From an uncultured Clostridia bacterium (lineage in GTDB: Bacteria > Bacillota > Clostridia > Christensenellales > UBA1242), in contig CALVZT010000001.1 of assembly GCA_944372595.1 (NCBI GenBank), positions 1 through 29,461 on the forward strand: a stretch of DNA of 29,461 bases. The letters run 5' to 3'. Position numbers and translations under genes: made by a program. Each line of letters starts with the position of its first letter. The stretch's first letter is position 1. The notes under the pieces were generated by a model. It was not told the DNA's origin, searched no databases, and saw only the letters and a list, made by a program, of their open reading frames with translations. Shown here one piece after another: positions 16,777-29,461 of the stretch.

Positions 16777-19497
16777 TTAATTCGACTTTTTTATAGCATC
16801 TACTGGTCGCATTCGACTAATCTTAATTGTCGGTATTATTGTAGCAATAATTGTGACCACAAGACAAGCAATTAATATAGCAAAAATTGGTTGAATCCCC
16901 ACACTTAATAAAGAAATTTTATCAATAACGTCAGATTGGAGGTATGTTTTAAAATTTGAGGATAACAACGAATTAACTCCCCAAATTCCAAGGAACATAA
17001 GTCCCCAAGATACTATCGTTGTGATTGCCCCAACTATTAAAGCTTCAATTAAAAATATTTTTGACACATCTGTGCCTTTGGCTCCAATTGCACGCAAAAT
17101 ACCAATTTCTTTCTTTTTATTTATAACACTAAGAGAAACAAAATTAAATAACAGTATCGTAGAAAAAATTCCTAAAATCAAAGCAACCCATTGAAATATT
17201 ATGGAAAATATTGCAAATATTTGACTTACCATATATAACGTATCGGATATTTCCGATTCATGATAAAGATAATTATCGTTTGCTGACTCTAATAATTTTT
17301 CAATTTCATACACATTTTCGGGGGTATCAACGTACACACCTTTTCTTGCAAAGTTGTTAATATTTAATTCATTAACTTTCTCATCGCTTAATATTCCGCC
17401 CAAAGACAACGAATAAATATCAGGCACTTCATATAAGGCAACAATATGGTAAGTCTCTACTTCGTATGCCACATTATCAACCGAAAACATTTTAAATGTA
17501 CCGATATCTATACTTTTAGGTTCAAAACCTTCAAAGTTATTGTTACTTGCAATATTTGTATTAAATATTTTGTTATACTCACTAGTCGATATTATAATAT
17601 TGTTTTTGTCTTGATTAACTAAATTAACATAATCATTGCTACTAAATTTTATATCAATATTATCCAAAGTGAGCAAATATATATAACTTGCTTTGAACAT
17701 ATATGCAGAAGAGGTCATACTTTTGGGAAAATCTTGTTCGTCAGAACTTTTTATCTTATAACGAGTCATATATGCACCCAAATTCGAAGAAGCAATATCA
17801 TTAACAATATCTTTGTTATATGTGTACATTATTGATAAAAAATTCGAAACTTCACTTGCAAATTGATTATAATCTTTGTGCCCCGTAAATTGCGAACTAT
17901 CCGCATTATATGTATTAATTAAATCTTGATATTTGGTTAAATAGTCTGTACCAATCACGGCAACTATGGGTACTGTTGTACCAAAATTATCAATAAGGTT
18001 GTATTTACCATCTCTATCAATTGCACTATAAATTTCTTCGGCACTTATTGTAGTAAGAGAAGCCTTGGCTCTTACAAAACACTCGATAAAGTAATCGGTA
18101 ACAATTACTCCATTGTTTGCATTGTCTAAATTACCAGATATAACATTTAAGTTGTCTTGTTTAAAATATTTTTTTAAATTATCTTCATTTGTAACAAGTA
18201 AACCACTAGTGTTTGATAAATACACAGAATCAACACTCTTTCCCATCAATGACATTATCATATTAATTATGTTAGAAGAAGAATTGTTAGAAAAAACCAA
18301 ATCAACACCATAATAATCATCGATATTATTAACTTCACCAAATACAGTGCGATATGTTTCATCATTTAAATTATTTTCAACATTGTAATTTAATGTTTCA
18401 TATTCATAATTATACTCACCTTGTTTGAGTATAATCGTATCAATATTATTTTTCTTAAAACTATTTGCCGAAGCGGACACAATATCATAGCCCGCAAATG
18501 TTTGACTTAGCCCAAACAAAGTCAATGCAATAACTGTTAAAAATATTGTTACTATCAATCTAAATTTTTTATGTGCAAAATTAGACACACCTATTTGAGT
18601 TGCAAATTTATTTGGAAGTCGCGATTTTATTAGTTTGAACTCTGATTTGTTTTTATTAATTACTTTTGTAGTTTTTTTGTATTCACTCTTTGCTAATTTT
18701 AACTTCGCGTTTTTATTATTGCTTATTGTATCATTTATTTTAGCTATTTGAGAAGCATTAAGGGGCTTGTTATATGGTATTGTGATTTCATCATCGTTTA
18801 CTTGAAATTCGATATTAGTATCATTTATTTTTGATACATCATTTATTACCTGTCCATCGTGTAATTCAATAATTCTATCTGCATATTTTTCAGCAGAATC
18901 TTTATCGTGAGAAACAATAATTATTAATTTCTCCTTTGCAAGATTTCTAAGTATATCAAATATTTGTTCAGATGTTTTTGAATCCAAGTTTCCAGTTGGT
19001 TCATCTGCAAGTATGATATCTGGATTTTTAACCAATGCTCTTGCAATAGCAACTCTTTGTTTTTGCCCACCACTTAGTTCATTCGGTTTTCTCTTTTCTA
19101 ATCCGTCAAGTCCAACTTGTTGCAAAATGTTTTCCACATCATTTTTGTTAACTTTTTTATTTTGCAATTTCAAAGCAAGCGAAACATTATCATATACAGA
19201 AAAATTATCCATAACATTGTATTCTTGAAATATAAATCCAAGATAAGTGTTTCTATAAGAATCATAGTCTTTGTATGAAAAATTTTTACTTGATTTATTG
19301 CGAATAATTATTTCACCTTTATCGGGAGCATCAAGTCCGCCAATAACATTCAAAAAGGTTGATTTACCACTACCACTTTTGCCCAACACAAAAACAAGTC
19401 CTTTATCTGGGAACTTAATATTCAAACCTTTAAGTGCCACACAGGAAGAACCTTTTTTGCTTTTATATGATTTATACAAATCCTTAACTTCTAGCAT
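16777..19497 (-). CDS. MacB-like ABC transporter, fused ATP-binding domain and FtsX-type permease
   Basis: Walker A GKSGSGKST, LSGGQKQR, Walker B ILADEPTGNLD and SHD H-loop. One TM near aa 315, a large extracytoplasmic domain, then three C-terminal TMs with KKKEIGILRAIGA and PVDAIK. Confidence 0.95.
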   Translation of the reverse strand: MLEVKDLYKSYKSKKGSSCVALKGLNIKFPDKGLVFVLGKSGSGKSTFLNVIGGLDAPDKGEIIIRNKSSKNFSYKDYDSYRNTYLGFIFQEYNVMDNFSVYDNVSLALKLQNKKVNKNDVENILQQVGLDGLEKRKPNELSGGQKQRVAIARALVKNPDIILADEPTGNLDSKTSEQIFDILRNLAKEKLIIIVSHDKDSAEKYADRIIELHDGQVINDVSKINDTNIEFQVNDDEITIPYNKPLNASQIAKINDTISNNKNAKLKLAKSEYKKTTKVINKNKSEFKLIKSRLPNKFATQIGVSNFAHKKFRLIVTIFLTVIALTLFGLSQTFAGYDIVSASANSFKKNNIDTIILKQGEYNYEYETLNYNVENNLNDETYRTVFGEVNNIDDYYGVDLVFSNNSSSNIINMIMSLMGKSVDSVYLSNTSGLLVTNEDNLKKYFKQDNLNVISGNLDNANNGVIVTDYFIECFVRAKASLTTISAEEIYSAIDRDGKYNLIDNFGTTVPIVAVIGTDYLTKYQDLINTYNADSSQFTGHKDYNQFASEVSNFLSIMYTYNKDIVNDIASSNLGAYMTRYKIKSSDEQDFPKSMTSSAYMFKASYIYLLTLDNIDIKFSSNDYVNLVNQDKNNIIISTSEYNKIFNTNIASNNNFEGFEPKSIDIGTFKMFSVDNVAYEVETYHIVALYEVPDIYSLSLGGILSDEKVNELNINNFARKGVYVDTPENVYEIEKLLESANDNYLYHESEISDTLYMVSQIFAIFSIIFQWVALILGIFSTILLFNFVSLSVINKKKEIGILRAIGAKGTDVSKIFLIEALIVGAITTIVSWGLMFLGIWGVNSLLSSNFKTYLQSDVIDKISLLSVGIQPIFAILIACLVVTIIATIIPTIKISRMRPVDAIKKSN

Positions 19498-20162: not shown

Positions 20163-21374
20163 TTACCTTAAAAACTTTTTACTGATTAATTCACTAATTG
20201 ATTTATAATCTTTATCAAGACCATATTTTACAATACCGATATTAGGCACTTCTTCATCAATGTAAATGTACAAAATCATATCACACAAAGATTTAATCTT
20301 TGTTTTACTATCAAAAAGACTCACAAGTAAATAAAAATTATTAAAAAAATAATTTTTAAAATAATTATTCCACCTATCAATCGTAATTGTGTTTATGTAC
20401 TTTTCTGCAATTATTCTACTGTTAACATTTACAGCATAATCATTACCAACGTATGCAAGAATTAACAATGGTATAACAAGTATCGAATAATCATTTGTTA
20501 CCATAATATTATCCAACAAATTATTAAGTACCGAAGATTCTATACTATAACCGCTAACATCATAATGTAAATAATTAATTTCTTTACATTTAGTGTATAA
20601 TTTTTCAAATGCTTTAACTTCTCCAACAATGTCCGCGAGTTTAATATATTTATCAGCATAATTTTTATAATCTTTCAAAAAATAACTAAAAATTAATTTT
20701 TGTCCATTTGTAAAATTATTGGAAATAGCAGGTACAATAACACTAATATTTTTATCTAACACATCGTTGAATTTTTCAACAACTAACATACATAAAAGTT
20801 GCATTACAACGATGATTTTTCTCACATCACTCTCAATAATATCAATATAAATTTGACTAAGAGGCAACAATTCTTGTGTATGAAGACTTGTTGCAAAATT
20901 TATGTATGATGTAACAAAGTCTTTATAATCTTTTGCAAAAACAGATTGACAACATACTTTAAGAAAGTATAAAAATTCTTTTTGTGATACCTTTTTGTTA
21001 ATATCCAAAAATTTTATTGCTTGAATAAATTCAACTAATCTTGTTAAATCTTTATATTCTTGCGAAGTAATAAGTCCCAAATCGCATGAAGAATTTAATA
21101 AATATATACCATTCAAAAAAGACACACTGGCAGGTTCAAAAATAATATAAAATCTAAGAATGTTATAATTGCCTAATTGCTTTAAGGTATTATGGAGTCT
21201 TGTCATAGTTTTGGTGTATAAAAATTCAAGTGCAGTATTATAAAATTCTGCTTTGCAAAAATTTGTAATCTTGTCTTTATCTATATCCCTAATACCAACA
21301 AAAGACGTTGAGTTAAAAACGTCCAAGTCAAAATTATCGTCAAGTTCAAGACTTTTTGGAACAGACCAAATCAT
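20163..21374 (-). CDS. Hypothetical all-helical protein; N-terminal region resembles a DUF4145/HEPN-like fold without an Rx4-6H motif
   Basis: 403 aa, perfect GAGGAGGT SD, ATGA overlap with the upstream DAC-like gene. The pattern F...FY..A..FLY.KTM..L...L..LG...L....DLGLIT...Y..L fits the helix order of HEPN-like families. The fold call is inference. Confidence 0.5.
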   Translation of the reverse strand: MIWSVPKSLELDDNFDLDVFNSTSFVGIRDIDKDKITNFCKAEFYNTALEFLYTKTMTRLHNTLKQLGNYNILRFYIIFEPASVSFLNGIYLLNSSCDLGLITSQEYKDLTRLVEFIQAIKFLDINKKVSQKEFLYFLKVCCQSVFAKDYKDFVTSYINFATSLHTQELLPLSQIYIDIIESDVRKIIVVMQLLCMLVVEKFNDVLDKNISVIVPAISNNFTNGQKLIFSYFLKDYKNYADKYIKLADIVGEVKAFEKLYTKCKEINYLHYDVSGYSIESSVLNNLLDNIMVTNDYSILVIPLLILAYVGNDYAVNVNSRIIAEKYINTITIDRWNNYFKNYFFNNFYLLVSLFDSKTKIKSLCDMILYIYIDEEVPNIGIVKYGLDKDYKSISELISKKFLR

Positions 21375-22405
21375 CTTTTTACCTCCTCATAGAAGACCTC
21401 ACCTTCTTGAGATTGAAAATATACTCCAATAATTTTTTTCTTTTTAGAGTTAAGTATTGTATAAGCGGCGCGTTTTCTCGCCCCACCGAGTATTTTTTTT
21501 GATACCGATGCCGTTGTTTCAACAAAAACATTATAAGCAAGAATTCTTCCTGCATTATCAATTATCGTAATTCCATCATAGTTAAGCATATCAATAAATA
21601 GACCAGCAATAGTCGAAAGTTGTGCCTCAGAATAAACCTTAGCTTGCAAATAACTTTTTGAAAAATCGATAGGTTCTCTTAACCAAATACCATCTGAAAA
21701 TATACCCGTATCCATATAATCTTTATCAACGATTACACAAATTGTACCATGTATATCTTTAAATGCTCTTTTTAAAATATTTTCTTGTAAAATTTTTATT
21801 TCATTTAATTTTTTCTTAGTAGTTTTTAATTTTTGCAGACTCGCCGAAACAAATCTTTTGATAACTGTATCAACATCAACAATTATATCGTCGCTTAAAG
21901 TAAAGTTTATTTGTAGTTCTCTTCCCTTAATCCCTTTTAGTTTTATTGCATAAGAACTTACAGCATCAATAAAAATCATTGATATTTTGTTATCAAAAAC
22001 AATCTCTTCATCAAACAACAATTGAGACAAATCTTTCTCTTTGATACTATTCATTGCTTTGCAAATGCCGTATGTAAATTGTGCATCTTTGTAAGAAATA
22101 TAAACAATCCAATCATTATTACAAAAATTAGCAAGACTTTTAACCCTTGGCTCAAAAGAACTCTCATCATTATCCACAAACAAATCAAGTTTGTAAGCAT
22201 TTGGTACGGCTTTTATTATTGAATCAATATCACTACATATTAAAATTGATGGACGAACTTTTGTACCTTCTTCTTCGTAATTACAAAATTTATAGAAAAA
22301 ACTATACAAGCGCACCAAAAATTTTTCTGGTAGCGTAGGAAATTCCAAACTAACAAAATTAACAACCGAATCTTTTGCATCAGAATAAAATACTTTTTCT
22401 ACCAT
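21371..22405 (-). CDS. Atypical soluble diadenylate-cyclase-like protein (C-terminal DisA_N/DAC domain, N-terminal putative sensor domain)
   Basis: C-terminal IHGTICVIVD...MLNYDGITIIDNAGRILAYNVF...GGARKRAA aligns with the DAC motifs HGALIV / DGA / G(T/A)RHRAA. No TM (so not CdaA) and no HhH tail (so not DisA). GGAG SD. Confidence 0.8.
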   Translation of the reverse strand: MVEKVFYSDAKDSVVNFVSLEFPTLPEKFLVRLYSFFYKFCNYEEEGTKVRPSILICSDIDSIIKAVPNAYKLDLFVDNDESSFEPRVKSLANFCNNDWIVYISYKDAQFTYGICKAMNSIKEKDLSQLLFDEEIVFDNKISMIFIDAVSSYAIKLKGIKGRELQINFTLSDDIIVDVDTVIKRFVSASLQKLKTTKKKLNEIKILQENILKRAFKDIHGTICVIVDKDYMDTGIFSDGIWLREPIDFSKSYLQAKVYSEAQLSTIAGLFIDMLNYDGITIIDNAGRILAYNVFVETTASVSKKILGGARKRAAYTILNSKKKKIIGVYFQSQEGEVFYEEVKR

Positions 22406-22423: not shown

Positions 22424-22957
22424 TTAATATTTTTTTTCAAACAAATATCCTATGTCTTTTTTTTGATCACCATTTATAAATTCGTTAGGTACTTTAGTCT
22501 CTAATTTTTTTATGAGTTTGTAACCACATTTTGTTGCAAATTTTACAATATTCATATTCAATGCAATATCTTTATCTTCAATAATAATAAGATATCTAGT
22601 AATAAATCTAAAAATTCCATTTAATAATTCTTTTAAATCCATATTATTGTCAATACCCCTTGTCAATACAAGATGAGCAAGACACAAATCATAGCCTTTT
22701 GTAATATGTTGCTTTCGAATATCCAACTTAACTAAGTTATATTTAACAGTTTTGATAGAATCCGCTATTAATTTAATTCTCTCAAAGTTATATATTGGAT
22801 ACATAGCGTCAATTTTTGCATATCCAAAGTAATTACCTAACATATACAAACTAGTTCTTCCCGTTCCGATATCGGCAATATAACTAATGTTATTGTCTTT
22901 TATGATATCAAAAAATGTTTTCATTATATATGTATGCTCTGCCCTTGGATAATACAT
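22424..22957 (-). CDS. Class I SAM-dependent methyltransferase-like protein
   Basis: Motif I IADIGTGRTSL, acidic LVKLDI and YDLCLAHLVL. Start is the ATG at 22957 (or GTG at 22960) after GGAGG, overlapping the SDR stop. Confidence 0.68.
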   Translation of the reverse strand: MYYPRAEHTYIMKTFFDIIKDNNISYIADIGTGRTSLYMLGNYFGYAKIDAMYPIYNFERIKLIADSIKTVKYNLVKLDIRKQHITKGYDLCLAHLVLTRGIDNNMDLKELLNGIFRFITRYLIIIEDKDIALNMNIVKFATKCGYKLIKKLETKVPNEFINGDQKKDIGYLFEKKY

Positions 22958-23745
22958 CACTTTCCTCCCATAGTTTTATATATAACTTTATGAAGCATAT
23001 TATATGGTAAAAATCTCATAATGAAATGCAATAATTTAAATTTAAATCCAATTATATAATAAGGCTTAATTTTTTTCTTATTTATTAACCTAAATATCTT
23101 TTTGCCTACTTTTTCAACACTTGCACGCTTATCATTTTTGCTATCGATTTTTTTTGCAGCATTTTCAATTTTTGTTCCATATCTTTCATTTGTATCAAAG
23201 ACTTTAACTCTATTTTGAGTAAAATTAGTTTTTATTTCAGATGGACAAATAGCACATACTCTAACGCCAAAATTTCTACACTCCATGTCTAATGAATAAC
23301 TCATTAAATTAAGTGCCGATTTCGAGGCGCAATAGATACCTCTAAACGGAACTGGATAAAAAGCACACACCGAGCTAATATTTATAATTTTGCCACCTTT
23401 GTTGATAATAGGTAAAAATTTTTGAACAAGTGAAACAACAGCAAAAAAGTTAACTTCAAACAAATTTTTAATGTTATGTAAAGGCAATAATTCTGTTGCT
23501 CCGGACAATCCAAAGCCAGCATTATTTATCAATATATCAATATGACTATATTTTTGCTTTATTTGTTCACAAACAACAACAATGTTTTCTTCATTGCTAA
23601 GATCACAAGCAAAATTATCAACATTTTGAATATCACAAGAATGTCTTGCAATATTTATCACTTTATCGCCCTGAGCAATAAAAGATTTACATAAATTGTA
23701 TCCTACTCCACTACTACCACCAGTAACAACAACAATTTTGCTCAT
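22957..23745 (-). CDS. Classical short-chain dehydrogenase/reductase (SDR)
   Basis: TGGSSGVG, ILINNAGFG, NISS and YCASK (YxxxK). Confidence 0.95.
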   Translation of the reverse strand: MSKIVVVTGGSSGVGYNLCKSFIAQGDKVINIARHSCDIQNVDNFACDLSNEENIVVVCEQIKQKYSHIDILINNAGFGLSGATELLPLHNIKNLFEVNFFAVVSLVQKFLPIINKGGKIINISSVCAFYPVPFRGIYCASKSALNLMSYSLDMECRNFGVRVCAICPSEIKTNFTQNRVKVFDTNERYGTKIENAAKKIDSKNDKRASVEKVGKKIFRLINKKKIKPYYIIGFKFKLLHFIMRFLPYNMLHKVIYKTMGGK

Positions 23746-24216: not shown

Positions 24217-24969
24217 ATGAAAGATTCAAATTTTTTTATAGATAATATAACATGGTTTATAGCGGGAATAGTTGCAATCATGATTGTTATTTCTATTGTC
24301 CTTATAATCAAAATAGTTAGACTAAAAAAGGAAGATAATCCTGATAATAAATCAAACAATCAAGACAAGGAACAAGATCAGTTTTCGCAACTTTTAGCAA
24401 ATAACATTTGGGAAGGAAGTGAAACCGCTCACCAAGTTACAGACAAAAATGAAGAAAAAATAAAAGCTACTAAAAAAGCAAAAAAAGATAAAAATGACAA
24501 AAAAGGATTAAAGTTGGGTGATGAAGGATTTAGACCAAAAATGATATTTACTAACGACAACAATAATGACGAACAAGAGTCGCAACCAACAGATAATACC
24601 AAAATTGTAGAACAACCAACTGCACACGAATTTCAACCTCAAAATGTAGAAAACAAAGATAATAATATCTTAAAATTCAAATTATCCAAAACTTCAAATA
24701 ATAAATACAGATTCAAACTTGAAGAGAATAATATAACTCAACTTTTATCAATTCCTTATAACAGCATTGATGAAGCAAAATCACAAATGAATAAAGTTAT
24801 TGCACACATCAAATCAAACAAATTTGAAGTTGACAATATTAATAATGGTTATAGATTTGCAGTAAAAATTAATGATAAAATCGTCGCAGTATCTAATACC
24901 TATCCAAATATCGAAACAGCCCAACAGGAAAGTAAACGTATTTACCAAATAATAATAAACAAATTTTAA
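24217..24969 (+). CDS. Membrane-anchored protein with two C-terminal DUF1508/YegP-like repeats
   Basis: N-terminal TM (ITWFIAGIVAIMIVISIVLII), charged low-complexity linker, then FKLSKTSNNKYRFKL...SIPYNSIDEAK and FEVDNINNGYRFAV...VAVSNTYPNIETAQ, matching the YegP pattern F.i......yRF.l....ii..S..Y.....a. Confidence 0.72.
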   Translation: MKDSNFFIDNITWFIAGIVAIMIVISIVLIIKIVRLKKEDNPDNKSNNQDKEQDQFSQLLANNIWEGSETAHQVTDKNEEKIKATKKAKKDKNDKKGLKLGDEGFRPKMIFTNDNNNDEQESQPTDNTKIVEQPTAHEFQPQNVENKDNNILKFKLSKTSNNKYRFKLEENNITQLLSIPYNSIDEAKSQMNKVIAHIKSNKFEVDNINNGYRFAVKINDKIVAVSNTYPNIETAQQESKRIYQIIINKF

Positions 24970-25869: not shown

Positions 25870-25901
25870 AAAAAAAACAACTTTATAAAAGTTGTTTTTT
25901 T
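25870..25901 (-). terminator. Terminator hairpin after the 25900-27066 gene
   Basis: AAAAAAACAACTTT-at-AAAGTTGTTTTTTT, a perfect inverted repeat starting at the stop codon. Confidence 0.8.
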
Positions 25902-27066
25902 ATTCCGCAACTGGACTTTCCAATTCAACTATCGGTTGTGTAACACTTACAATGTTACCACTTTCATCAATTAAGCCTAGTACCTTTGCTTCATCTGCCG
26001 TTAATGTTACTGGATGTCCCAATAACGCCATGTTAATACTTGCCAAATCTCCTTCCTTTTGATCAAATATTGCTCTTTCAATAGTTGTTGACTCATAAGA
26101 TGTTGCTTTGTCAAAAGAATTTTTGATAATTTCAATTGGATTGCTACCCTCCACTAGGTTTACACTGTATGCCGCATATTTATCTACTTCTTTTTCGCTA
26201 CCATCTTCGTTGTATTCAAGCCCAACCATATATACTTTGCCCATATCTTTATCAATCAAATACTGTATTTTACAATTCTCATTAAAGATTGCTTCTTTTT
26301 CTTCTGTTTGTGCTTCTTCACCAGTTTCCCCTTCTGTTGGAACCTCTTCATCAACTTTTTCGCTCAAAATATAATATACATTTTGTCCATTCATAGTTTT
26401 AATCGTCTCATCGCTAAGACTAGATTTTCTAAATGCAGTAAGTGGGCTCTTGCCTTGATCCATAACAGTAATTTTACCATTACTTTTGTATGTATCTAAA
26501 TTTTCTACAAACTTTTTAATCGCTTCATTTATATTTTCAGCATTACTTGTTTTATCAGCATTTAAAATATTTTCTATGCTTGCTCCATCAATAGTAATAG
26601 TATTAAATATTTTATTACCATTTGCATCAGTCGATTCAACATCAATCAAAACAAAATTCTTACCAATTCTTGTTTTTGCATTTGAGCAACTTGTTATACT
26701 TATAGATTTGCTAAGTTCGGCATCAAGTCCTAACACTTCACCAATTTTTGTTTTAAAGTCATTCATCTTGTTAATTACAATTGGATTAACTTCAACGCCC
26801 AAAACATTAGCTTCTGATTGCAAATCTTCTATCGAAATTTGCTCAGAAATCACATTTTGATTGTTTTCATCAACATTTTCCTCATCAGGCAATACCGCAA
26901 AAGTAATCCCTGTAACAATACCAGCTGTAATACCCAATGTAATCAATCCGGTGAATATTTTATGATTTTTAACCCAATTTTTGAAATTTTTCCATTTGGT
27001 CGTCCCTGTTGCTCCTGTTGGTGCGGTTGGTGCCGTTCTTGTTGACCTCCTTTTCTTTGGTGCCAT
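25900..27066 (-). CDS. Hypothetical type II membrane-anchored acidic surface protein
   Basis: Start moved to the ATG at 27066 (GGAGGGA SD, 1 nt after the upstream stop). Basic N-terminus, one TM (IFTGLITLGITAGIVTGITFAVL) and a Glu/Asp-rich ectodomain. Confidence 0.75.
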   Translation of the reverse strand: MAPKKRRSTRTAPTAPTGATGTTKWKNFKNWVKNHKIFTGLITLGITAGIVTGITFAVLPDEENVDENNQNVISEQISIEDLQSEANVLGVEVNPIVINKMNDFKTKIGEVLGLDAELSKSISITSCSNAKTRIGKNFVLIDVESTDANGNKIFNTITIDGASIENILNADKTSNAENINEAIKKFVENLDTYKSNGKITVMDQGKSPLTAFRKSSLSDETIKTMNGQNVYYILSEKVDEEVPTEGETGEEAQTEEKEAIFNENCKIQYLIDKDMGKVYMVGLEYNEDGSEKEVDKYAAYSVNLVEGSNPIEIIKNSFDKATSYESTTIERAIFDQKEGDLASINMALLGHPVTLTADEAKVLGLIDESGNIVSVTQPIVELESPVAE

Positions 27067-27067
27067 T

Positions 27068-29461
27068 TTATCCCTCCATTGTTCCATTTGTAATTTCGAT
27101 TATGTAATTATTTTCAGTAAATGCATTGGTTTCTATTGTCAAATTTGCATTTTCACAATTCCATTTTGTCAAAATAATTTTACCTTGCTTGTCACCTTCA
27201 TTAGTATTATTTATACCACTATTAGCAAAACTATTTTCTTTTAATGTCCATCCGTTTAATCCAGACGTTCCTAAATCATTACCGAATACAACTTCATTAA
27301 GAGTAGAAATTTCAGCAAAAGCGTAAGCTTCAACAATGGTTGTTTTGTCGTCATACATATTATCAAGTGCCACATTAACTAATCCTGTTTTGTAGAAAGC
27401 ATATTCTCCAATGCGATTAATTTTTGTGGTATATTCTTCGTCTTGGGTTCTCATAAAGTCAATACCAACAAGATTAGTACATTCTTCAAACGCATGTGCT
27501 TTTATCTCAGTAATACTTCCAGAGAAGTAAACATATTCTAACGTTTTAATTCCAAAGAATGCACCTTCATCTATATATGCAACATTGTCTGAGAAAATTA
27601 ATGTGCTTCCATCTGTTTCATCCCAACTTGGATAAGTAAGAGCAGTGTTTCTAAATGCATATTTGCCAAAGTGAGTTAACTCAGTATTATTCAAGGTTAC
27701 ATTTGCTAAATTTGTACAACCATCAAACATATAATCAGTAAGATTTGGAACAAGATTTAATGTAACAGTTTTTAATGCTGTATTTTCTTTGAATAGTCCA
27801 GTACCAATTTTATTTTCAATTAATAAACTATCTTTTAAAGCATTGATATTAACCATAGTGAATGTAGTTCTTGCAAATGCTTCGTTACCAATTGTTGCAT
27901 CATCAATTAATTCAAATGAGAATTCACCAACTGATTCAGCTTTGGTATTAAATGCTTGTATTGAACTTCCATCAAAAGCATTATTACCAATTACTGATAT
28001 ATTATTTTGCTCAGTTACTATAACATATTGCAATTGAGAAGTACCAGCAAAAGCACTTTCTTCAATAGTAGTAATGGTATTAGGTATAACAATATTTTGT
28101 ATGCTAGTATTATTTTTAAATGCATTTGCAGAAATTTTTATTACATTGTATGAGAATATAGTTTGTGGAATAGTAACAGTGTCTTCTACAACTGCTCCAT
28201 CAACAATTCCAGTAATACCTACACCAATAGTAACATCGTCAAGATTTTTAATTTCTTCGTATGCAAATATAGTATAAACAGGATAAACTTTCACATTATT
28301 GGCAGGCATGCTTTCAATAGTATTATTAAGAATTTGTTCTCCACCTTCATATTGCCAGCCTATAAAATTATATCCTTCCATCTCAAATATATCGGTTCTA
28401 AGAGTAACTTTTGAACCAAATTTATGAGTTTCTTGTTGGGTAATCTCTTTACCTTGTCCATCATAACCAATTACATATATAACTTGATAATCTTTTGGAA
28501 CAACATTAATTACAACGTTTACTGGATTAATTACATTTGTAAAGTTAATTGTTTCAGTCAAGCCATAATTTACTTCATTATAAATTAATTCGGTAACTTC
28601 ATAACCTTCTTGTAATGCCCCGGTAATTAATGCCTTTTCTTCATCTGTTATTACAAATTCAAGGTTTTGTCCATAACTTACTTCTCTACTAAATAATTCT
28701 TCTCCATTGAACAAGAAAGATACTTTATTAACCGTAAGAGAAGTTTTTGCGTATAATTCTTTTGTATATGTTTCTTTACCAGTACCAAAGAATGCTTCAT
28801 CAAGCACAACACTTGTTCCTAGTGCTTCTCCAGTATAATCTGCATTATCGTACCAACCATCAAACACATATCTATCAGAATTAATATATTGTGATACTAA
28901 TTCATTTAAGTTAAGAGTGTCGCCAAATTTTTTGGATATCGTTTGTTGTGCAGGCTCTCCATTTGCATCACTATAATTGATTGTAATTGTTGCAGGTTTT
29001 CCTTCGTAAACAGGAGTTAATGAGTAATTTTTGTTTGCGTCAACCTCTTGTCCAGCGGTATAAGTTGTATTCCCATCGCTCCAACCTTTGAAAATGTAAC
29101 CAGTTTTATCAATTTCATCAGGAATTGTAAACTTAACGCCTTCGTTATATTGTTTTGTGATTTCAATTACTTGACCTTCGGCATTTGTATAACTCATCAC
29201 AAAATCTTTATTTCTCCACACTGGATACAATACAACTTCGTTTTCTGTCCAATCAATTGCATAAGATTGATTTGCTTGATAAGTAACATCTTCTATGGTG
29301 TTTGCGCTAGTTAAGTTTCCAGTAGGGGTATCTTTTTTCCAACCCAAGAAGTCATACAAACTTAAAATGTCATTGTTAACATTTGATAATGGTAATACTA
29401 CATTAGCGCCATATTCATAGATTCTTGTTGCACTATCATCAAGTTCATATCCACCATTATT
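27068..29461 (-). CDS. Large surface protein with InlB B-repeats (Flg_new type) and C-terminal BspA-type leucine-rich repeats; 5' end beyond the window
   Basis: The frame stays open to the window edge (NNGGYELDDSATRIYEYGANVVLP...LYDFLGW). Repeated GY.F.GW units (FLGW, FKGW, FDGW, FIGW) are followed by LRR_5-like units (IPNTITTIEESAF, I..IGNNAF, V..IDEGAF, ITEIKAHAFEECTNL). Confidence 0.9.
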   Translation of the reverse strand, partial: NNGGYELDDSATRIYEYGANVVLPLSNVNNDILSLYDFLGWKKDTPTGNLTSANTIEDVTYQANQSYAIDWTENEVVLYPVWRNKDFVMSYTNAEGQVIEITKQYNEGVKFTIPDEIDKTGYIFKGWSDGNTTYTAGQEVDANKNYSLTPVYEGKPATITINYSDANGEPAQQTISKKFGDTLNLNELVSQYINSDRYVFDGWYDNADYTGEALGTSVVLDEAFFGTGKETYTKELYAKTSLTVNKVSFLFNGEELFSREVSYGQNLEFVITDEEKALITGALQEGYEVTELIYNEVNYGLTETINFTNVINPVNVVINVVPKDYQVIYVIGYDGQGKEITQQETHKFGSKVTLRTDIFEMEGYNFIGWQYEGGEQILNNTIESMPANNVKVYPVYTIFAYEEIKNLDDVTIGVGITGIVDGAVVEDTVTIPQTIFSYNVIKISANAFKNNTSIQNIVIPNTITTIEESAFAGTSQLQYVIVTEQNNISVIGNNAFDGSSIQAFNTKAESVGEFSFELIDDATIGNEAFARTTFTMVNINALKDSLLIENKIGTGLFKENTALKTVTLNLVPNLTDYMFDGCTNLANVTLNNTELTHFGKYAFRNTALTYPSWDETDGSTLIFSDNVAYIDEGAFFGIKTLEYVYFSGSITEIKAHAFEECTNLVGIDFMRTQDEEYTTKINRIGEYAFYKTGLVNVALDNMYDDKTTIVEAYAFAEISTLNEVVFGNDLGTSGLNGWTLKENSFANSGINNTNEGDKQGKIILTKWNCENANLTIETNAFTENNYIIEITNGTMEG

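Follow-up and report, generated by a model that had tools for sequence, protein, structure and literature searches.

Does a protein with a diadenylate cyclase (DAC) domain whose catalytic motifs are altered still make a nucleotide signal, and for what? The question is raised by a 344-amino-acid (aa) open reading frame (ORF), here named DACL, on the minus strand of a 29,461-nucleotide stretch of DNA (the window; contig CALVZT010000001.1 of assembly GCA_944372595.1, positions 1 to 29,461) from an uncultured Clostridia bacterium of the order Christensenellales. The original prediction described, at 21371-22405, a DAC domain with DGI in place of DGA and RKR in place of RHR, preceded by a sensor-like N-terminal domain with an EEG segment; it was silent on a partner gene overlapping DACL and on the canonical cyclic di-AMP (c-di-AMP) network, which was not found in this genome. 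The ORF stood as first given and starts with an ATG carrying a GGAGA ribosome-binding site. On balance we lean, by a small measure, towards DACL being catalytically active, as the cyclase of a private signalling module of two genes; the signal that it runs is probably private and still undescribed. For DACs at large, 22 families were reportedly defined by Galperin in 2023.

A predicted diadenylate cyclase fold with a conserved catalytic core

DACL (21371..22405) is predicted to have two domains (AlphaFold2 (AF2) model, mean predicted local distance difference test (pLDDT) 85.9), an N-terminal alpha/beta domain (residues 1-190; 21836..22405) and a C-terminal domain of DAC (DisA_N) fold (residues 195-344; 21374..21823), all features of DACL and its partner being encoded on the minus strand. 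The Pfam DAC/DisA_N model (PF02457) was seen in DACL at 20 bits (E 5.4e-4), below its cut-off of 27 bits, and the best match among 50 diverse family members (E 7e-5) was under the cut-off too. Sequence searches of the PDB, by phmmer with the protein and by hmmsearch with family and DAC-domain profiles, matched no cyclase. Residues 180-344 of the AF2 model superpose on known cyclases, scoring 11.5 with DisA (3c1y; root mean square deviation 3.1 A over 125 residues), 10.6 with DacM and 9.3 with each of CdaA and CdaM, and all significant Foldseek matches of the model were diadenylate cyclases; as modelled, the C-terminal domain has the DAC alpha/beta fold.

Comparison of the DACL profile by hhalign with canonical CdaA from sister families of the same order (E 2e-4) paired HGTICVIV with the GALIV strand, DGI with DGA, F294 with the aromatic of CF-LPLS and GGARKRAA with GTRHRAA. 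H219-G220 (21746..21751) lies at the start of strand beta1 and pairs with the G of canonical GALIV. YDGI (21569..21580) holds D277-G278, the Asp-Gly of the DGA motif, with Ala replaced by Ile, while F294 (21524..21526) falls in the column of the CdaA aromatic (CF/CY-LPLS), presumably the residue that stacks on adenine (L. monocytogenes CdaA Tyr187). GGARKRAA spans 21464..21487, the range 21461-21487 first given including one extra codon, for Tyr; here both Arg of RHR (R310 and R312) are retained, His is replaced by K311 and both flanking Thr positions are Ala. SQEG (residues 332-335; 21401..21412) is outside the hhalign alignment, and its spacing suggests that S332-Q-E334-G335 is the equivalent of the SEETG strand that bears the metal-binding Glu of CdaA.

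The family to which DACL belongs is large, with 679 homologues of ~345 aa; an exhaustive profile search gave 582 cluster representatives (50% identity), mostly of ~340-355 aa and with both domains. The close homologues all come from gut metagenome-assembled genomes labelled Clostridia, Christensenellales or Christensenella. Among 28 homologues at 49-65% identity, D277, G278, G307-G308-A309-R310-K311-R312-A313-A314 and Y43-E44-E45-E46 are invariant, so that DGI, RKR and the EEG segment are all as originally read. A wider alignment of 50 of the 582 representatives, reaching down to 21% identity, left E45, E46, G220, D277, G278, G308 and R310 invariant and Y43, K89, W99, G113, H219, Y291, F294, G307, A309, R312 and S332-Q-D/E-G335 conserved in at least 90%. 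In distant members Asp-Gly is followed by I, V or A; the central position of R-x-R is taken by K, R, S, T or D in different parts of the family, and the signature, as read from the alignment, is DG[IVA] ... GGAR-x-RA. Because the His position varies in this way, Lys for His is neither a family-defining change nor one special to DACL. The large DAC-fold family of DACL, which has no name, has an N-terminal domain of its own and ancestrally had a partner of its own as well.

Since the residues of the catalytic core are kept across the 50 members, DACL is very probably an active cyclase. For the crystallised PanS cyclase, D71, G72, G107 and R108 are reported as fixed residues of the active-site base (10.64898/2026.08.10.743927), and the Asp, Gly and first Arg of DACL correspond to three of these four. 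Replacing RHR with AAA in M. tuberculosis DisA abolished ATP binding and activity (PMC3328451). A309 and A313 occupy the positions of T107 and T111 of T. maritima DisA, which contact adenine. At the adenine-contact positions, E. coli PanS has Gly and Ala and makes cyclic UMP-AMP besides c-di-AMP, and Acinetobacter PanS has Ala and Thr and makes only c-di-AMP (PMC13640721). Given this precedent and the Ala at A309 and A313, the base specificity of DACL is not to be assumed; one argument, by analogy, would favour the altered product or trigger-dependent activity that the original prediction put forward as a possibility, namely that Ala at both positions resembles the small residues of E. coli PanS.

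An N-terminal domain with an invariant acidic pair

The N-terminal domain is specific to the family, without a known fold match, and its conserved residues are Y43, E45, E46, P52, K89, W99, Y112 and G113. The YEEEG motif (residues 43-47; 22265..22279) lies within FYKFCNYEEEGTKVRPSILI (residues 37-56); distant members have YKEEG, YREEG, YQEEG or YTEEG in its place, and E45-E46 is invariant in the wide family. An acidic pair that never varies in the alignment points to a site for a ligand, a metal or catalysis.

Membership of this domain in the DACN-type group, which had been proposed, found no significant Pfam match in DACNV, DACNH or DACNG. DACNV (PF21751) matched 4 of the 28 close members, at E 0.15 or worse, and none of the 50 diverse members. 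DACNH (PF21750) had no match in DACL, the 28 close or the 50 diverse members, and DACNG (PF21752) gave none in 78 family members or, with E allowed up to 10, in the window's genome. Other leads agree in direction. ESM-Atlas features of residues 1-192 fell to DACNH/DACNV clusters with a score of only 0.76; hhalign set YEEEG on F-K-Y-E-G within the DACNH match of a Bacillota protein, non-significantly (E 0.32); and DS-2C from a Citrobacter plasmid was collinear with the DACL profile across DACNH and DAC, again non-significantly (E 0.026, probability 1.9%). None is significant, and kinship with DACNH/DACNV is a weak lead. Sampling 401 genomes of the phylum for each model gave no DACNV above threshold and one protein with DACNH. 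A degenerate second copy of the DAC domain was considered as well and rejected, hhalign giving no signal (E 0.38, 0.21 and 0.52).

A translationally coupled partner gene

Downstream of DACL lies p403 (20163..21374; 403 aa), predicted to be all-helical (AF2 pLDDT 83.1). Its start lies inside the stop codon of DACL, the two genes overlapping as ATGA, and it is translationally coupled to DACL. Of 81 loci, 35 (this window and 34 related ones) have a p403 homologue directly after DACL, nearly always with an overlap of 1 or 4 bases; in the remaining loci, mostly of distant DACL homologues, the neighbours are housekeeping genes, for example those for PheS/PheT, RecD2, peptidases, a PLD-type synthase and an SPFH protein. 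A survey of 41 related genomes found p403 in 3, each time adjoining DACL: in 3 of the 11 with DACL and in none of the 30 without it; a genome of the same genus has DACL, and p403 was not found there. As p403 was not found in 8 of the 11 genomes with DACL, DACL must work alone in these. Dependence therefore runs in one direction only, from partner to enzyme, DACL being able to work by itself.

Two parts of p403 could be delimited, a HEPN-like four-helix bundle (residues 24-153; 20916..21305) and a conserved C-terminal module (residues 250-374; 20253..20627) that carries H270 ... E279, G310 and W335 and is fused to the enzyme in distant relatives. The protein had no Pfam, PADLOC or PDB sequence match, and Foldseek gave only non-significant helical-repeat matches (E at least 0.14). 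The Rx4-6H motif is missing from the bundle and from all 403 residues of p403, and the family alignment holds no such conserved pair. The partner profile aligned by hhalign with the C-terminal tails of two DACL-type enzymes, P0233 (608 aa; probability 85%, E 6.5e-6) and P0220 (521 aa; probability 50%, E 1.6e-4), and this fusion of the module to the enzyme suggests that DACL and p403 act together.

Structure prediction of the DACL-p403 complex scored 0.32, the best of three controls scoring 0.00, with at least 87% of contacts in agreement between runs and a partner pLDDT of at least 83. The mark used is passed by 58 of 80 solved complexes and by 2 of 110 mismatched pairs, and scores of 0.60 or under comprise only 7 of the 80 solved complexes plus both mismatches that passed. 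The prediction thus backs the pairing weakly, such a score being more often wrong unless the pair is likely beforehand. In G+C content p403 (25.1%; 3rd percentile among 1.2-kb windows) is lower than the genome (30.3%), and DACL is average at 29.4%; the deviation is too mild to speak for recent transfer.

The same gene pair on plasmids

Searching 72,556 plasmids by tblastn with DACL and a distant member gave two records, one from Vibrio and one from Agrobacterium. On both, a DACL homologue of 339-352 aa is followed at once by a p403 homologue of 441-443 aa. The plasmid proteins are full-length homologues, with hhalign probabilities of 99.3-99.5%; the two partners gave E 1e-20 to 1e-23, and the Vibrio enzyme, which was the sole enzyme compared, gave E 3e-23. 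In these alignments H270, E279, G310 and W335 of p403 pair with the same residues in the two partners. The Vibrio pair is located between a helix-turn-helix gene and a BsuBI/PstI and Eco57I-type restriction-modification system with an IS3 transposase. The Agrobacterium pair is divergent from, and 320 bp apart from, a CD-NTase and patatin cyclic-oligonucleotide-based antiphage signalling system (CBASS), which PADLOC recognised at E 8.6e-120 (CD-NTase) and 1.1e-154 (patatin). These two contexts are reminiscent of CBASS-DAC (PMC13069673) and of PanDA systems, which are reported to be found often next to CBASS (PMC13640721). PADLOC had no match for DACL, p403 or their plasmid homologues, and no relative was found in 50,697 phage records. 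On the Vibrio plasmid (NZ_CP028945.1; locus L103, 3225-3839) the partner gene is overlapped at its end by a 204-aa hypothetical gene without Pfam or PADLOC match, which may be another component of the system in that host. Nothing at the Agrobacterium locus or in the window corresponds to it.

A bolder version of the two-gene module, which we hold only tentatively, is that DACL and its partner are an undescribed anti-phage or conflict system, its signal a dinucleotide that the DAC makes instead of c-di-AMP or in addition to it. The Glu-Glu site would then be an infection sensor or a second catalytic centre, and the reduced gut Christensenellales would have domesticated the enzyme, often without the partner, as a core function after discarding the canonical network.

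Apparent loss of the canonical c-di-AMP network in the host lineage

The window's assembly is 0.82 Mb long, in 111 contigs and 89.7% complete. At this completeness it contained no CdaA or other canonical DAC, and neither PgpH, DarA nor RCK_C was found in it; the ydaO c-di-AMP riboswitch was likewise not found in this genome, the sole one searched for it. A canonical DAC occurs in 1 of 24 sister genera (on a short contig of a 4%-contaminated bin) versus 15 of 16 other families of the order. The corresponding counts are 0/24 above the cut-off versus 16/16 matching, 14 of them above the cut-off, for PgpH, 0/24 versus 7/16 for DarA, and 3/24 versus 15/16 for RCK_C. Ten of the 24 sister genera carry DACL and none of the 16 other families does; 13 of the 14 sister genera that lack it have no DAC of any kind. 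A weak match that could have been a second DAC in genome G009 was actually a phosphofructokinase. Bacillota are usually thought to be c-di-AMP-dependent; this lineage, with genomes of ~1 Mb, seems to have shed the canonical network for that messenger, and under half of its genera keep DACL.

These distributions bear on the possibility, which we consider unlikely, that DACL is the lineage's substitute c-di-AMP synthase for potassium or osmolyte balance (CdaM is the c-di-AMP synthase of mycoplasmas), with p403 a CdaR/GlmM-like regulator. Strong purifying selection, conserved synteny in a core region, a complete catalytic core in DACL and the lack of canonical CdaA in 23 of 24 sister genera all fit such a role. 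However, the apparent loss of the network together with retention of DACL in under half of the genera counts against a simple housekeeping replacement: the targets and turnover of the pathway were not found either (PgpH, DarA, the ydaO riboswitch, with RCK_C in 3 of 24 genera), 14 of 24 sister genera do without DACL, and the 13 of them without any DAC indicate that no essential c-di-AMP function is general in the family. In Proteobacteria, moreover, plasmids carry this gene pair next to defence genes.

Still less probable, in our judgement, is that the DAC fold of DACL is no longer catalytic and merely binds a nucleotide or a protein. The loss of the RHR His, the change of the DGA Ala to a bulky Ile and the marginal similarity to active DACs (20 bits on the Pfam model and no PDB match by phmmer or profile hmmsearch) would agree with a pseudo-enzyme, but defence-associated DACs with partial DGA/RHR conservation are active in vitro (10.64898/2026.08.10.743927). 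Furthermore, down to 21% identity no positions of the protein are better conserved than those that carry out the chemistry in solved DACs, namely Asp-Gly, the two Arg, the acidic strand and the stacking aromatic. Dead enzymes usually lose precisely these residues. The least credible of the alternatives is that DACL places a nucleotide on p403 or another protein and so switches its HEPN-like partner, in the way that MNT enzymes AMPylate their HEPN toxins. From the HEPN partners of HEPN-MNT toxin-antitoxin pairs and Csm6/Csx1, p403 differs in lacking Rx4-6H and any CARF or MNT component and in having an extra helical region of 250 aa with conserved H...NFY-x-E, G and W.

A model for the two-gene module and its relation to known systems

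Returning to DACL as the cyclase of a private module, we start from what is shown, namely fold and conserved residues, the coupling and fusion of the genes, their phyletic patterns and the contexts on plasmids, and infer catalysis, product, partner binding and biological role as follows. DACL would be the synthase of a two-gene nucleotide-signalling module in which two DAC domains meet head to head and condense two nucleoside triphosphates into a cyclic dinucleotide, most likely 3'3'-c-di-AMP or a mixed purine-pyrimidine relative. The N-terminal domain with its Glu-Glu pair would control or localise this activity, and p403, with its HEPN-like bundle and helical module, would be an accessory subunit that binds the enzyme, reads the product or does both. 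The module would be mobile and of defence-island type in Proteobacteria; in the reduced gut Clostridia lineage it would have become fixed in a syntenic core region, working without the canonical c-di-AMP components that were searched for.

DACL differs from the established cyclases in architecture. Compared with CdaA/DacA it has no three-helix membrane anchor (the maximal 19-residue Kyte-Doolittle mean is 1.23) and no cdaR or glmM neighbours; compared with DisA it has no linker or HhH domain, its DAC domain being C-terminal and the protein ending 9 residues past the SQEG strand. To the DAC domains of CdaA, DisA and CdaM it adds the 190-aa N-terminal domain, the DGI motif, a variable His and Ala at both adenine-contact Thr positions.

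Closer in layout is CdaG/DS-2C of CBASS-DAC (Liu-DS2), a protein of ~550-580 aa composed of DACNG, DACNH, DAC and a C-terminal helix bundle (PMC13069673; 10.64898/2026.08.10.743927; PMC13640721). Both are soluble DACs with a non-catalytic alpha/beta domain at the N-terminus and a helical C-terminal part, both have His-Gly ahead of strand beta1, and one relative of the DACL pair is found beside a CD-NTase and patatin CBASS. The helical part, which in CdaG/DS-2C belongs to one protein, is in the DACL family a separate gene or fused (P0220, P0233); DACL lacks DACNG, and the partner profile did not match the DS-2C tail (probability 0.1%). A true DS-2C on a Citrobacter plasmid (NZ_CP029730.1; locus L106, 4296-6041), with DACNG at E 2.3e-67 and DACNH at E 1e-30, has no Pfam DAC match at E up to 0.1, and it seems that the Pfam model generally misses DAC domains of the defence type. 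PanDA/Panoptoo resembles the DACL pair in being a two-gene operon of a divergent DAC and a private partner that stands beside CBASS in some hosts, as has been reported for PanDA systems (PMC13640721). However, PanS is a DAC domain alone of ~150 aa whereas DACL has 344 aa with the extra 190-aa domain, and PanE is a 2TM-beta membrane effector whereas p403 is predicted to be soluble and helical.

A number of observations weigh against the proposed module. The DAC domain is under the Pfam threshold and has lost the His of RHR. Of the 11 DACL genomes searched, 8 are without p403, that of the same genus included; p403 has no effector chemistry recognisable from its sequence (no Rx4-6H), and its HEPN-like part shares few polar residues with the plasmid homologues in alignments judged by eye. 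Besides p403 no phosphodiesterase or receptor candidate was identified. The evidence for a defence-type context comes from the two plasmid loci inspected, and the neighbours in the window are housekeeping genes (ClpX, RluD-type synthases, LspA, an ABC transporter), unlike those of a mobile defence island. Synteny is also kept across species, with the order SDR - DACL - partner (SDR, short-chain dehydrogenase/reductase) common to many, which again is unlike a mobile island.

Reports of roles of the DAC fold beyond osmoregulation and DNA-damage signalling are recent: CBASS-DAC dates from April 2026 (PMC13069673), and preprints of August 2026 describe PanDA/Panoptoo and DS-2C. The DACL family is a further, larger-bodied DAC architecture, missed by Pfam and PADLOC. 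In a gut-wide Pfam/InterProScan census every DAC kept was assigned to CdaA, DisA, DacZ or CdaS (PMC12901056), and a DACL-like family is probably undercounted by a census of this kind; if so, tallies of c-di-AMP-capable bacteria are too low for this lineage. As the search for canonical c-di-AMP components in the host came up empty, the product of DACL should act via very few receptors, and product and target would be unusually easy to trace. If the partner does read the signal, it would represent a new class of receptor or effector for cyclic-dinucleotide signalling.

Neighbourhood of DACL in the window

The genes around DACL are an SDR gene, a 178-aa orphan, p403 and YgjV. Median pairwise identity reaches 69% in DACL, the highest of the neighbourhood, compared with 54% in the SDR gene and 45% in the partner. 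A promoter and terminator scan gave results at chance level. The orphan (22424-22960, minus strand), which directly precedes DACL and has a 4-base overlap with the SDR gene, belongs to no Pfam family; its DIGTGRT segment resembles an S-adenosylmethionine-binding glycine loop, and a homologue (cluster c21) occurs near DACL in seven other loci. On the other side, 16777-19497 (minus strand) encodes a single 906-aa polypeptide in which an ABC ATPase and an FtsX-type permease are fused (MacB-like), and several species have homologues of 870-960 aa (cluster c10) a few genes downstream of DACL.

Two ORFs of the window are without assignment, one of 250 aa (24217-24969, plus strand; no family) with an N-terminal hydrophobic helix and a low-complexity middle rich in Asn, Lys and Asp, and one of 395 aa (25900-27087, minus strand) with no Pfam match. 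Finally, the ORF at 27068-29359 (minus strand; 763 aa, or 797 if the frame leaves the window) carries BspA-type leucine-rich and Listeria-Bacteroides repeats, and from these its product is likely a surface adhesin, notable for so small a genome.

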